In this document: piece by piece, positions 2,404-6,036 of the stretch | Layout: the number at the start of each line of letters is the position of its first letter | Numbering within the stretch: the stretch's first letter is position 1 | NCBI GenBank assembly: GCA_964651185.1 | Contig: CAZYWR010000349.1 | Coordinates: forward strand, 1-25,734 | Length of the DNA stretch: 25,734 nt | Source: an uncultured Polyangiales bacterium | GTDB taxonomy: Bacteria > Myxococcota_A > Polyangia > Polyangiales > DASUME01 | Direction of reading: 5' to 3' | Notes under the pieces: generated by a model | Told to the model about the DNA's origin: nothing | Seen by the model: the letters and a program-made list of their open reading frames with translations, nothing else | Database searches by the model: none | Program-made: the position numbers and the translations under genes

Positions 2404-3903
2404 CTACCCGCGCAAGAGCGCAGGGAAGTTGCGGCGGCCGGGGAAGTCGAGGGCGAGGGCTTGGGCGAGGATGCTGTAGACGTCGCCTTCGGCGAGGCTC
2501 TGCTGTTTGTCGGGGGTGCCGGTTTGAGGGTCGAAGCCGTAGGTGAGGCCGGTCTTGGGGTCCACGCCGCCGTAGATGGCGTTGCCTTGGAGTAAGGGGG
2601 AGATGAGGACCGAGCCGTTGTTCATGTGGTGGCCGGTGCCCCAGGCGGCGGCGTCTTTGCTGCGCGTCTTGTCGCGGCCGAACTCCGTCGCGATGTAGAT
2701 CAGCGAGCGGTCCCACATCTTACCTAGCGCGGGATCGCCTAGATAATCGTAAGTCTTGAGTAAGGTGATGAGCTGATCGAGCAAGCTCGCGGTGCGGCCC
2801 CACATGATGCTTTGCACGATGCGATGCAGGTTGTGGGAGAAGTCGAACGCGATCGGTGTGCCGGTGATCTCGCCGTCGGCCAACACGACGGGGTCCGGCT
2901 TGTGGCCGAGCGTGACGCTCACGGAGACGCCGTAGTAAGCGAGCAAGAACGCCAGCGCGACTTGGGCTTGCGTATTGTCTTGGTCGAGCAGGGGCAGGCG
3001 CTGGCGCAAATCGGCTGCGAGCGGCGACGTTTGCAAGCCGTACTTCGGATCGACTTGCGTGGGGTCGAGCAGGAGCAGCTTGTCGACCAAGCCCGCCTGC
3101 TCGAGCACGACGCTCGTCTGACTGCGCGTGGACAGATACTTGCTCAGACGCGGGCTGTCGCGGAAGGTTCGCGCGAACAGCGAGCGCCGGTCGAGCTCGT
3201 TACGCACCATGCGCGCGTTTTCGATGAGCTCGCCCGCCGGAGCCCCGGCTATGCCGCGATAGCCATGCGTTCCTGCCGCGAACAAGAGCGGGGTGGCGAT
3301 GATCTCATGACGCGCCTCTTGCGGGACGGTGTTATCGAGGCCGTGCCGGAGATAGCCGTCGACGGACATGTTGCAGCTCGGCAGCGGCATGCCGCCGCCG
3401 TAGCGTATGGCGGCCTCTTCCATGATCGTGCGGCCGCGGTTGATGCCGGAGCCGTTGAGCGCGCGCTGCTGGCCGACGGCGTGGTTTACGCTCGATACGC
3501 CGTGCGCCACGATCGCCATGTCTTGGCCGTGGCGCACCAAGAGATCGCCCATCTCGGGCGGTGTGGCGTAGAAGCTGTAGTTGCCGAGCAGCTTCACGTA
3601 GCGGATGTTGCTGCCCGCGGGCTGCGCCACGAGCTGCTCCGGGAAGACATTCAATGTGCTCGCGAGATCGGTGTCACCGACTTCCGTGTCCACGATGGGC
3701 AGGAAGCTATCGATGATGCTCGCGCCGCCGTGCGCGCAGAACACGAACAAGAGCTTGCGGTCTTGCGGAGCGACGGCGGTGGGCATCGTTTGGCCGCGCA
3801 CGTGCCGCGTCTTCAGCATTGCGCTCACACCAGCCGCGACGGCGCCGGCCGCTCCAAGCTGCATCAGACGCCTTCGACTGAATTTTGGATCTCGCATACC
3901 CAT
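2404..3903 (-). CDS. DUF1501-like protein with twin-arginine (Tat) signal, 499 aa
   Basis: N-terminus KFSRRRLMQLGAAGAVAAGVSA (Tat-like); LLFVFCAHGGASIIDSF, FDFSHNLH, IYIATEFGR, GTGHH, ISPLLQGNAIYGG motifs resemble DUF1501. Confidence 0.75.
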   Translation of the reverse strand: MGMRDPKFSRRRLMQLGAAGAVAAGVSAMLKTRHVRGQTMPTAVAPQDRKLLFVFCAHGGASIIDSFLPIVDTEVGDTDLASTLNVFPEQLVAQPAGSNIRYVKLLGNYSFYATPPEMGDLLVRHGQDMAIVAHGVSSVNHAVGQQRALNGSGINRGRTIMEEAAIRYGGGMPLPSCNMSVDGYLRHGLDNTVPQEARHEIIATPLLFAAGTHGYRGIAGAPAGELIENARMVRNELDRRSLFARTFRDSPRLSKYLSTRSQTSVVLEQAGLVDKLLLLDPTQVDPKYGLQTSPLAADLRQRLPLLDQDNTQAQVALAFLLAYYGVSVSVTLGHKPDPVVLADGEITGTPIAFDFSHNLHRIVQSIMWGRTASLLDQLITLLKTYDYLGDPALGKMWDRSLIYIATEFGRDKTRSKDAAAWGTGHHMNNGSVLISPLLQGNAIYGGVDPKTGLTYGFDPQTGTPDKQQSLAEGDVYSILAQALALDFPGRRNFPALLRG

Positions 3904-3910
3904 CCCGGAG

Positions 3911-4561
3911 TCAGAAGAACAGAAACTCAGTCGTGGAGCCGATCGCGAAGCAGCTCAACGTGGCGAAGTCTGCCGCGGGCACGGGCTTCCCAGCTTGGTC
4001 GCGCGTCAACGCCGCCACCAACGGGAGCTCGTGCGCGTCCGGATCGCGCGCCAGAAGGCGCCGGTAGAGCGCGCTGACCGTCTCCGTGACGCTGGGATGG
4101 CCCGGCTCGGGGGCGTCGCCTTCGAGATCGAGCGCGCCGAACACGCGCGCCGCTTGCGGTCCGGCCGCGCGATCGAGCGCGACTCGCTGGCCGCACGCGC
4201 TCAAGAGCACGCGATCGATCGCGGTGGGCGTCGTCGCGAGCGGCTCGGCGCTCGGCTCGAGCAGACCGGTCGCGAACGGGTCGTTGCCGCCGAGCGGCAC
4301 CAGGTGCACCTCATGGATGCACGACGCGCGACCGAGCTCGTTGCACAGCTCTTCGGGCGCAAGCTCGAGCGCGCGCGTCAGATCAGCCTCGAGCGCGGCG
4401 TAGCGCTTCCACTGCAGGTTGGGCTGCGTGGACGCCCGGTACGCCGCCGTCTCCGTGTTCGGGAGGGCCGGCTGTGGTTCCGATCCTTTGGAACAACCGC
4501 TCGCCATGGCGAAAGCCAGGCTCAGGACCGCAGCCCATGAAAAACCCGATCGCTTCATCAT
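3911..4561 (-). CDS. Hypothetical lipoprotein, 216 aa (middle gene of the operon)
   Basis: ATG 4561 overlaps the upstream TGA (ATGA). MMKRSGFSWAAVLSLAFAMASG-C is a lipobox. The ORF-track extension to 4759 overlaps the upstream gene and is unlikely. Confidence 0.8.
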   Translation of the reverse strand: MMKRSGFSWAAVLSLAFAMASGCSKGSEPQPALPNTETAAYRASTQPNLQWKRYAALEADLTRALELAPEELCNELGRASCIHEVHLVPLGGNDPFATGLLEPSAEPLATTPTAIDRVLLSACGQRVALDRAAGPQAARVFGALDLEGDAPEPGHPSVTETVSALYRRLLARDPDAHELPLVAALTRDQAGKPVPAADFATLSCFAIGSTTEFLFF

Positions 4562-6036
4562 GGAACTCCGAAGGCGCGCGTGTCTATCAGACGGTGCAAC
4601 ATACGATTGGCGGAGTAGCCGTCGGCAGGCAACGCCATCCACAGCGCGGTGAACTCGGGGAGATCGCCGGCGTTCGGCGGCCGCGACAGCGCGTGCTCGA
4701 AGAACAGCTCTGCCATGTTGCGCTTGAACATGTCGGACGCAGCCGCGACCCCCGCCCACTCCACGAGACTGCTCACGTACTGCCCGAACAGCACCGGCCG
4801 TTGTACGCTGTCGTCCCAGCGCGGCATGGTGCGCGTGACGCGCTCCGGACGATAACCTCCGAAGCCGCCGCCGTTGTACATCGCGTCGATGCCTTCATAC
4901 TTGGCGAAGGCGTAGGCGAGCGGATCGAGCGTCGAATGGCAGATGGCGCAGCGCGGGTCGTCTACGCCCTTGTCGTCGATATCGGCGGGCTCTCCGGGGA
5001 CTGGACGAATGCCGTCGAGGCTGGTGATGTCGGCGCCGAGATACGCGCGATACGCTTGCGCCGCGGTGGTACGCGGGAGGCCGCTGAACATCGTGTTGAT
5101 GGCCAGAAACCACTGCGTCGTGATCATGCCGGCGCGCTGATCTTCGGAGAGTGGCTGGCCGCCAGCGAGGGCCGACGGGTCTGATTTATCGAGCGGACCT
5201 GTCACCTGACTGAGCGTGCCGTCGGCGGCCTCCACGACGTGATAGCGCGCGGTCAGGAGCTCGCGCATGTCGCGATCGCCCGTAAGCAGGTAGCGCCACA
5301 TGCGGTAGTCGTAGTTGTAGTCGCCGATCACGAGTCGAAACGGACCGATCTTGACCTGCGTGTCGGGACCGGCGGCCGCGAGGGGGCGAATGCGTTTGTC
5401 GGCCAAGCGCGGCAGCGCGGTCTTCGACCAATATGTTGAATTCAGGCAAGCGCTGAGCTTGTCGTGGACGCGCTGGTGCAACGTGGCGGCGTCTGGCTGG
5501 CCTGCGCTCAAGGCCTGAAGCTCTTCGTAGCTCGGCGATTGGCCGCAGTACAAAACGGATACGCGGCGGTAGGCGAAGCGGAAATCGTAGTTGCCCACGT
5601 CGAAGCGCGGATTCTCCGGGCCCATGGGCGCGGGCGGCTCGCTCCAGCCCGAGCTTGCGTCTCCGGGCATCGTGCCGAGCGTCAGCTCGCGCAAGTTCGT
5701 CAGGCCGTCGCCGTCGGAGTCTTCCTGCTCGATCGCGTGGACCGCGTCAGGCAAAGCCTGCTCGAAGGCGACATCGCTGGAGAGCTTCGCGAGCACCGCC
5801 TGTCCGTACCCATTCCAGGCGACGGGGGCCACGGACACGTGGCATTGCGCGCAGTTGACGATCTTTCCTTCGCAGTCTGGAATCGTCGGGTAGACGCTGC
5901 AGAAGAGCTCGGGAGCGACCGGCTCCGCGAGGCTCTGCGCCGGCCACAGCGCGAACAGCAACGCGCACACGTGCGCCCAACGATGTAGCTCGTGAGCGCG
6001 TAAGCAAAGACGGGCGATGCCCGGATTGCGCAGCAT
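4558..6036 (-). CDS. Exported di-CxxCH cytochrome c-like protein with DUF1588/DUF1585-like C-terminal region, 492 aa
   Basis: ATG 6036 preceded by AAGGTGG; signal peptide ending SLA-EP; CAQCH (5839-5853) and CAICH (4936-4950); acidic EDSDGDGLTNLRE loop; RAGMITT and CHSTLDPLAYAF resemble DUF1588. Confidence 0.75.
   Translation of the reverse strand: MLRNPGIARLCLRAHELHRWAHVCALLFALWPAQSLAEPVAPELFCSVYPTIPDCEGKIVNCAQCHVSVAPVAWNGYGQAVLAKLSSDVAFEQALPDAVHAIEQEDSDGDGLTNLRELTLGTMPGDASSGWSEPPAPMGPENPRFDVGNYDFRFAYRRVSVLYCGQSPSYEELQALSAGQPDAATLHQRVHDKLSACLNSTYWSKTALPRLADKRIRPLAAAGPDTQVKIGPFRLVIGDYNYDYRMWRYLLTGDRDMRELLTARYHVVEAADGTLSQVTGPLDKSDPSALAGGQPLSEDQRAGMITTQWFLAINTMFSGLPRTTAAQAYRAYLGADITSLDGIRPVPGEPADIDDKGVDDPRCAICHSTLDPLAYAFAKYEGIDAMYNGGGFGGYRPERVTRTMPRWDDSVQRPVLFGQYVSSLVEWAGVAAASDMFKRNMAELFFEHALSRPPNAGDLPEFTALWMALPADGYSANRMLHRLIDTRAFGVP

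Follow-up and report, generated by a model that had tools for sequence, protein, structure and literature searches.

The window analysed here is the whole of a 25.7-kb contig (C349; 25,734 nucleotides) in the 7.05-Mb soil metagenome-assembled genome (MAG) of an uncultured Polyangiales bacterium. Our subject is a cassette of three genes in this window, here called A, B and C, which on comparative grounds is one genuine co-inherited unit of exported proteins that diverge together. The reading which we favour, with moderate confidence, is that the cassette is an operon-like, accessory Myxococcota variant of the modules in which a CxxCH protein of the PSCyt/PSD type is combined with a DUF1501 or DUF1552 protein exported by the twin-arginine translocation (Tat) pathway. 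The products of A and B would form a lipid-tethered partner (A·B) for C, a putative metalloenzyme. The open reading frames and their sequences define the following genes:

Gene A, minus strand, ATG at 6036 to TGA at 4558: 492 residues, CxxCH protein.
Gene B, minus strand, ATG at 4561 to TGA at 3911: 216 residues, lipoprotein.
Gene C, minus strand, ATG at 3903 to stop at 2404: 499 residues, DUF1501-type protein.

An initial annotation had described three co-oriented genes with an ATGA overlap and a 7-nucleotide gap, and the re-derived coordinates, all on the minus strand, agree with it. The ATG of B overlaps the TGA of A as ATGA (4561–4558), through which B is apparently translationally coupled to A, and the gap between B and C occupies 3910–3904 (7 nt). 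The three distinct export signals which it had listed (Sec on A together with two CxxCH motifs, a lipobox on B and a twin-arginine motif on C) can be read in the sequences and are conserved in the homologues.

The loci compared were two annotated contigs, 34 genome loci and 11 related loci from a sample of the phylum. Homologue searches gave 956 (A), 242 (B) and 547 (C) matches, nearly all of which are metagenomic or from Myxococcota; contigs of identical length turn up in all three sets of matches. Wherever full-length copies are present (25 loci), genes A, B and C are collinear and share one strand; the same holds for further partial loci, and their order is kept in every related locus with enough flanking sequence. 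Over the 25 full-length loci, identity to the window proteins ranges from ~33% to 66%, and the identities of the three proteins co-vary [r(A,C)=0.98, r(B,C)=0.95, r(A,B)=0.96]. The genes flanking the cassette differ and are unrelated from locus to locus; none of the neighbours found in the window (an AraC fragment, a VapBC-like pair, a LysM/PG-binding protein and an FGE-sulfatase protein) is conserved beside it in the compared loci. The co-conservation of the three genes therefore holds among Myxococcota loci, and is reinforced by gene fusions.

A profile of B was searched against 1.84 billion representative proteins (E<=1e-3) and returned 645 clusters, almost all of 190–270 residues. Two clusters are longer, P0403 (630 residues) and P0497 (675 residues), and both consist of B, minus its signal peptide, joined to the C-terminus of A. 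The A-B fusions, present in two lineages, suggest joint action of A and B at least. Three contigs, which come from two or more sequencing runs, carry the P0497 fusion, and a C homologue (43% identical) starts 20 nt after the fusion gene. Nothing else in the data speaks as strongly for A and B working as a single physical unit which C constantly accompanies.

The genomes carrying the cassette are labelled Polyangiaceae, Polyangiales, Nannocystaceae, Myxococcaceae, Myxococcota and Bradymonadia. A few carrier MAGs bear the labels Klebsiella, Enterobacterales, Alphaproteobacteria or Pseudomonadota, which we suspect to be mislabelling. Within the window's genus the cassette was found in 2 of 10 genomes, the other copy being just 57% identical; it also occurs in 6/41 relatives and in 29/301 genomes sampled across the phylum. 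It is usually single-copy, with two or three copies in some genomes. Judged from these sequences, the cassette is accessory and patchily distributed, and within this sampling it belongs to the Myxococcota. Two carriers are in culture, Nannocystaceae bacterium ST9 and Pseudenhygromyxa sp. WMMC2535, which makes questions of heme, metal, complex formation and knock-out phenotype directly testable.

In the product of gene A, an N-terminal module with CxxCH and DxDxDG motifs is followed by a helical stretch that belongs to no known family; the C-terminal region is of the PSCyt3/PSD2 (DUF1588/DUF1585) type. The features of A are:

5926..6036, minus strand: signal peptide, residues 1–37, with likely cleavage after SLA and a predicted helix at residues 5–29.
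5839..5853, minus strand: CxxCH motif 1, CAQCH, residues 62–66; C62, C65 and H66 nearly invariant.
5704..5721, minus strand: DSDGDG loop, residues 106–111, a TSP3-like putative Ca2+-binding motif; D106, D108 and D110 invariant.
4936..4950, minus strand: CxxCH motif 2, CAICH, residues 363–367, the PSCyt3 hallmark; C363, C366 and H367 invariant.

The conservation of the CxxCH motifs, on which the initial annotation relied, is strict: both are kept in 31 of 32 A homologues, the exception being N-terminally truncated, and when A was shuffled 200,000 times, two such motifs appeared together just twice (chance ~1e-5). A37 and P39, near the likely cleavage site, are nearly invariant in the 32 homologues, and further conserved cysteines are found at C46 and C55, within the N-terminal module, and at C164 and C197. 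Pfam TSP3_bac matches A weakly (18.5 bits) and is found in 8 of the 32 homologues.

Hidden Markov model (HMM) searches placed the C-terminal region of A. Pfam PSD2 [DUF1585, PF07624] covers residues 431–489 with 27.7 bits, passing its cut-off of 25.8, and matches all 32 homologues [best E-value 3e-14]. Pfam PSCyt3 [DUF1588, PF07627] gives 19.5 bits, under the cut-off of 27; the motif CAICHSTLDP is present, and all 32 homologues are matched at E<=0.01 [best 5.4e-6]. Weak PSCyt2 matches occur in just four homologues. We also compared A with 13 canonical PSCyt3/PSD proteins encoded upstream of DUF1552 genes, three of them from the window's genome. In HHalign only residues ~255–492 of A align with these partners [98.8%, E 5.7e-17], and the C..CH...[DN] motif of the second site also occurs in canonical DUF1585-family partners. 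These alignments show homology to PSCyt3/PSD2 proteins over the C-terminal half of A.

The N-terminal module of A is shared with the GEGP di-heme proteins of NCBIfam [diheme_GEGP, NF041762], residues 60–138 corresponding to model positions 49–128 of 359 (37.7 bits against a cut-off of 300), and this match to the CxxCH and acidic-loop module recurs in all 32 homologues. The remaining three quarters of the model are unmatched, for which reason A was rejected as a member of this family; no true NF041762 member was found among 31 related genomes. Two further identities for A, a classical cytochrome c and a di-heme protein of the MauG/peroxidase type, were likewise dropped, there being neither a fold nor a sequence match; no PDB sequence matched A. 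The genome does contain three PF01578 matches, that is, cytochrome c maturation genes of the CcsA/CcmF type. Because motif conservation is strict, export is predicted and these maturation genes are present, as expected for a c-type cytochrome, heme binding by A is plausible.

Gene B specifies a putative lipoprotein, with one feature of note:

4493..4495, minus strand: lipobox cysteine, Cys23, in ...FAMASGC; nearly invariant.

The lipobox reads MMKRSGFSWAAVLSLAFAMASG-C23, and a relaxed lipobox pattern fits 26 of 30 homologues; B is thus a bacterial lipoprotein by its sequence, lipidation being predicted. No Pfam or NCBIfam family and no PDB sequence matched B, and an HMM of B found nothing else in the window's genome. 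Taken with its ~645 sequence clusters, B appears to represent an unannotated lipoprotein family. Four of its cysteines are invariant (C73, C81, C123 and C204) and probably form two disulfides; other conserved motifs are LQWKR, VHLxPLGG, EPLATTP and LYRRLLARDP. By eye B bears some likeness to PSD domains, LQWKRYAALEADL resembling RRLTxxEYxNTVxDLL and LYRRLLARDP resembling FxRRAFRRP. HHalign of B with the N-terminal PSD region gave E 0.0094, confined to the LYRRLLARDP-type helix, and PSD1 matches were found in just 4/30 members at E-values of at least 0.085. That B might be a split-off PSD3/PSD5 domain of the canonical PSCyt3 partners was rejected (HHalign 4.4%, not significant).

Gene C carries the following features:

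3790..3903, minus strand: twin-arginine signal, residues ~1–38, with R10/R11 at nt 3876–3871; RR in 29/29 homologues.
3706..3729, minus strand: GGASIIDS motif, residues 59–66; G59, G60, D65 and S66 invariant.
2626..2685, minus strand: EFGR (residues 407–410) and GTGHH (422–426) motifs, placed by joint alignment with canonical DUF1501 proteins.

The N-terminus of C starts MGMRDPKFSRRRLMQLGAAG, and its twin-arginine stretch is SRRRLMQLGAAG, of which R10 and R11 are invariant. Possession of SRRRLMQLGAAGAVAAG, with RR in every one of the 29 homologues, and the presence of TatC in the genome (206 bits) mark C as a Tat substrate, although export itself is predicted. Pfam TAT_signal matches 11 of these homologues.

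Pfam DUF1501 [PF07394] scores 15.5 bits on C, under its cut-off of 27. Weak matches are found in 16/29 homologues [best E 0.0087], none of the 29 lies above the cut-off, and a scan of the whole genome with this model did not detect C. HHalign of the C family with 12 canonical DUF1501 proteins of the phylum gave 98.7% [E 3.2e-16] over 396 aligned columns. The description of C as DUF1501-like is therefore upheld by profile-profile comparison in spite of the low Pfam score, and from its sequence C is a full-length, very divergent DUF1501 homologue. With 12 DUF1552 (HXXSHH) proteins the corresponding value is 62% over 154 N-terminal columns, and a DUF1552 [PF07586] scan of the genome yielded five matches elsewhere. 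C was not among these, and with a similarity limited to its N-terminal third it was ruled out as a DUF1552 protein. The DUF1501 and DUF1552 families are themselves distantly related (HHalign 96.7%).

From the 12 canonical proteins we defined five DUF1501 motif blocks: GG..D[ST], a conserved His, D-x-H, [ED]FGR and G-x-D-H. Four of the five are kept by C, as G59 G60 D65 S66, H141, D354..H357 and E407-R410. GGASIIDS is equivalent to the GG..D[ST] block which follows the first strand in DUF1501, and we might suggest that it is a putative metal ligand and nucleophile region. In total ~75 columns are invariant in the C family, including D65/S66, H141, D354/H357/H360, EFGR and H425.

An AlphaFold2 (AF2) model of C was confident [predicted local distance difference test (pLDDT) 81.8, predicted template-modelling score (pTM) 0.82]. 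All of the top 50 Foldseek matches in the PDB were enzymes of the alkaline-phosphatase superfamily, among them arylsulfatases, alkaline phosphatase, NPP, phosphonate monoester hydrolases, LtaS, BcsG and phospholipase C. As in this superfamily, where they supply metal ligands and nucleophile, the conserved Asp/Ser/His blocks of C follow core strands; unlike its members, C is only weakly similar, has no sequence-level PDB match and lacks the C/S-x-P-x-R sulfatase motif. The evidence from the model, though weak in each match, points to an alkaline-phosphatase-superfamily fold. An FGE-sulfatase gene two genes downstream of the cassette (3–806, minus strand) was considered as maturase for a sulfatase-like C and rejected because it is not a conserved neighbour, an FGE-sulfatase gene being near the cassette in 1/47 loci and there upstream; the missing sulfatase motif of C also speaks against the idea.

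PSCyt/PSD proteins and their DUF1501/DUF1552 partners are among the largest families without a known function in Planctomycetota, Verrucomicrobiota and Myxococcota. They were noticed in bacteria of the Planctomycetes-Verrucomicrobia-Chlamydiae (PVC) group in the early 2000s (work cited in PMC5615132). Kamneva et al. (2012) described conserved PVC modules, of unknown function, in which a Tat-signal DUF1501 protein accompanies PSCyt1/PSCyt2/PSD1 proteins, and proposed, from motifs of the kind seen here, a role in electron transport and membrane targeting (PMC3542564). In the published pairings DUF1501 goes with PSCyt1/PSCyt2/PSD1, and PSCyt3 (DUF1588, usually with DUF1585) with a second unknown family (PMC3542564, PMC5615132), which in the phylum genomes sampled here is DUF1552. 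The initial annotation had placed DUF1501 genes next to DUF1585/1588-type genes; this is imprecise with respect to the published pairings, but the cassette itself does join a DUF1501-type enzyme to a PSCyt3/PSD2-type partner and thereby crosses both of them. To call it an undescribed system was an overstatement, since modules of PSCyt/PSD CxxCH proteins and Tat-exported DUF1501/DUF1552 proteins were described bioinformatically in 2012 and 2017 (PMC3542564, PMC5615132). What is new here is the three-part myxobacterial architecture, the unannotated lipoprotein family, and the combination of a PSCyt3/PSD2-type partner with a DUF1501-type enzyme.

Like the cassette, the module of Kamneva et al., found in Planctomycetes, Verrucomicrobia and Lentisphaerae, has a Tat-signal DUF1501-type gene adjoining the gene for an exported CxxCH protein; it is conserved and often multi-copy, with "planctomycete-specific" domains in the CxxCH protein. 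The cassette differs from it in that A has PSCyt3/PSD2 instead of PSCyt1/2/PSD1 (DUF1549/DUF1553), a separate lipoprotein gene B lies between this partner and C, C falls below the Pfam DUF1501 cut-off and is without the Asp of G-x-D-H, and the sampled carriers are Myxococcota, not PVC bacteria.

Four to five pairs of PSCyt3/PSD (DUF1587-DUF1595-DUF1592-DUF1588-DUF1585) and DUF1552 (HXXSHH) genes occur in the window's own genome (pair type: PMC5615132). Their PSCyt3/PSD2 end is homologous to the C-terminal ~240 residues of A, including CxxCHxxxDP, and the partner gene specifies a Tat-exported protein distantly related to DUF1501. The first ~250 residues of A do not align with them, A having instead the CxxCH and DxDxDG module and a helical region which is not shared. 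Going by the domain names established for the family, the canonical partners have a PSD region at their N-terminus, which A apparently lacks. Whereas the PSCyt3 partners of DUF1552 are lipoproteins themselves, in the cassette the anchoring lipid belongs to a protein of its own, B, which is not detectably related to their PSD domains, and the enzyme C is of the DUF1501 and not the DUF1552 type.

Based upon these comparisons we propose that A is exported by Sec and would have c-type heme attached at one or both of its conserved CxxCH sites. It would bind the lipoprotein B, whose lipid anchor would hold the pair at a membrane. C would fold and load its metal in the cytoplasm, cross by way of Tat, and dock onto A·B as the catalytic subunit. 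A·B might then either transfer electrons to or from the metal centre of C, or recognise its substrate and present it. As to the chemistry, the modelled fold of C suggests a metal-centre reaction in the cell envelope, the target of which would be a group that is ester-like or bound to a polymer. The membrane-tethered redox or metallo-enzyme complex of the initial annotation survives in part: the exported, co-conserved unit, the A-B fusions and a DUF1501-like C, with maturation genes and TatC in the genome, speak for it, and heme binding suffers from the missing cytochrome fold match and from the low model confidence around both motifs. Viewed more widely, the cassette is a compact, usually single-copy module with its parts split over three genes, among which the A-B fusions point to parts that touch, and it adds an unannotated lipoprotein family (~645 clusters) to this type of module.

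A more specific form of the proposal, which we think quite unlikely, is an obligate heme-dependent oxidoreductase built on a subunit with the alkaline-phosphatase fold. Electrons would pass between c-type hemes of A·B and a remodelled metal centre of C, in which an Asp has been lost and a His/Asp gained. If true, this would be a redox chemistry not known for the alkaline-phosphatase superfamily, and the same logic would explain hundreds of PSCyt/PSD and DUF1501/DUF1552 modules in Planctomycetota, Verrucomicrobiota and other phyla.

Several observations weigh against the proposed A·B partnership with a metalloenzyme. Across the C family the canonical G-x-D-H block has become G-[TS]-[GSA]-H-[HD]; with this Asp replaced, C may have a different metal site or none. 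Position 426, one after the motif His (H425), is always His or Asp. The fold matches of C are weak, with a best E-value of 1.3e-3, a probability of 0.89, a TM-score of ~0.3 and 8–13% identity. The AF2 model of A (pLDDT 78.9) falls below 50 at residues 62–71 and 316–370, around both CxxCH motifs, and it has no fold match in the PDB, hence none to a solved cytochrome [Foldseek best E 0.63]; because the motif regions are modelled with such low confidence, this is a weak test of a cytochrome fold. What connects C with A·B in the proposed complex is synteny only. Transcript evidence for an operon was sought, and the sequencing runs found to hold this DNA are soil metagenomes only. Finally, the searchable literature (full text, by DUF names) gave no DUF1501, DUF1552 or PSCyt/PSD member with a tested function.

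As an alternative, the CxxCH motifs might bind no heme and serve as disulfides, either structural or redox-active, or as a metal site, with A·B a lipid-anchored partner which binds or positions the substrate of an ordinary hydrolase C and transfers no electrons. Alkaline-phosphatase-superfamily enzymes are mostly hydrolases or transferases and need no electron donor, no cytochrome c fold was detected for A, and its C46, C55, C164 and C197 together with a Ca-type loop are typical of disulfide- and Ca-stabilised extracytoplasmic proteins. In PVC bacteria, moreover, carbohydrate-binding domains are frequent on PSCyt proteins (PMC3542564, PMC5615132). We nevertheless find this somewhat unlikely: the whole of C-x-x-C-H, including its His, is invariant or nearly so at both sites of A over 35–74% identity, the motif is retained in distant canonical PSCyt3 proteins, cytochrome c maturation genes are present in the genome, and poor modelling exactly at CxxCH is to be expected where a cofactor is missing from the model.

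The altered G-x-D-H block raises the further question of whether C is an enzyme at all. Its Asp, present in 12/12 canonical DUF1501 proteins, is Gly, Ser or Ala across the C family, and every one of the 29 members is below the Pfam cut-off, as might be anticipated if C were catalytically dead and the unit a periplasmic binding or sensing complex. Such a loss is difficult to reconcile with ~75 invariant columns which include the other putative ligand blocks, with the compensating His or Asp always found at position 426, and with a Tat signal in all 29 members, which suggests that C is exported already folded and possibly carrying a cofactor; we consider it very improbable. That the three genes are unrelated exported proteins which are merely adjacent is hardly credible. 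Beyond the lack of transcript data nothing speaks for it, and the comparisons contradict it already: the genes are strictly collinear in every related locus, their identities correlate with r values of 0.95–0.98, A and B are translationally coupled, and A-B fusions occur, in P0497 followed by C. Our preference thus remains with a lipid-tethered A·B partner for the metalloenzyme C.

A metal connection of the cassette is hinted at by a fourth co-oriented gene, which follows C in the most distant subclade (C ~37–39% identical). It is present in seven loci (L034, L038, L039, L045, L046, L048 and L050; at ~7340–8130 of loci taken with 6-kb flanks) and specifies a lipoprotein of ~190 residues bearing the Cu-binding_MopE "putative metal-binding motif" [27.5–31.5 bits, cut-off 27]. 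In the window a 567-residue protein with repeated MopE-type putative metal-binding motifs is encoded at 8366–10069 on the plus strand, 2.3 kb from A. With about a dozen MopE-motif genes in the genome, its closeness to A may be due to chance. The MopE-type link was not accepted as a feature of the cassette, since the fourth gene is restricted to one subclade and the MopE-motif gene of the window is not adjacent.

On the 3' side of C lies a gene for a 444-residue LysM and PG_binding_1 protein (806–2140, minus strand), beyond which the FGE-sulfatase-domain gene is cut by the contig end. Directly upstream of A, at ~6130–6300 on the minus strand, is an AraC-type helix-turn-helix fragment (LATILGMSKRTLRRRLASACTSYRRVLDEVRRERALALVSEGKLSVSELALQL) without an N-terminal domain. 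An AraC regulator was considered as a conserved upstream partner and ruled out, being a truncated remnant in the window and absent from the other annotated loci. A scan for promoters and terminators was uninformative in this DNA of 65–70% G+C, terminator-like sites occurring at chance level.

The same genome harbours, on contig C429 (2935–3956, plus strand), the C-terminal half of a C paralogue with 61% identity. A TAA stop and changes of frame interrupt it, and no A or B homologue lies upstream; it is thus either a remnant of a pseudogene or an artefact of assembly. In the lineage that has the A-B fusion (L094:1860–10028 and L095), a gene for a 714-residue B12-binding radical SAM protein shares 4 nt with the start of the fusion gene, and a very large protein with an eCIS_core domain is encoded after C; these neighbours were seen at no other locus.

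Also upstream of A, at 6348–7039 on the plus strand and thus opposite to the cassette, the window holds a VapBC-like toxin-antitoxin pair. A short antitoxin-like open reading frame (within 6175–6612) precedes a PIN-like sequence (YWDASALLPLIVTEPG...), the reading of which changes frame (6348–6917, then 6377–7039), so that the toxin gene appears frameshifted or mis-assembled. Further along the plus strand are two ordinary genes, one for a FadB-type enoyl-CoA hydratase/3-hydroxyacyl-CoA dehydrogenase fusion (13481–15721), and one for a multi-PAS hybrid histidine kinase with a receiver domain (17659–20199).

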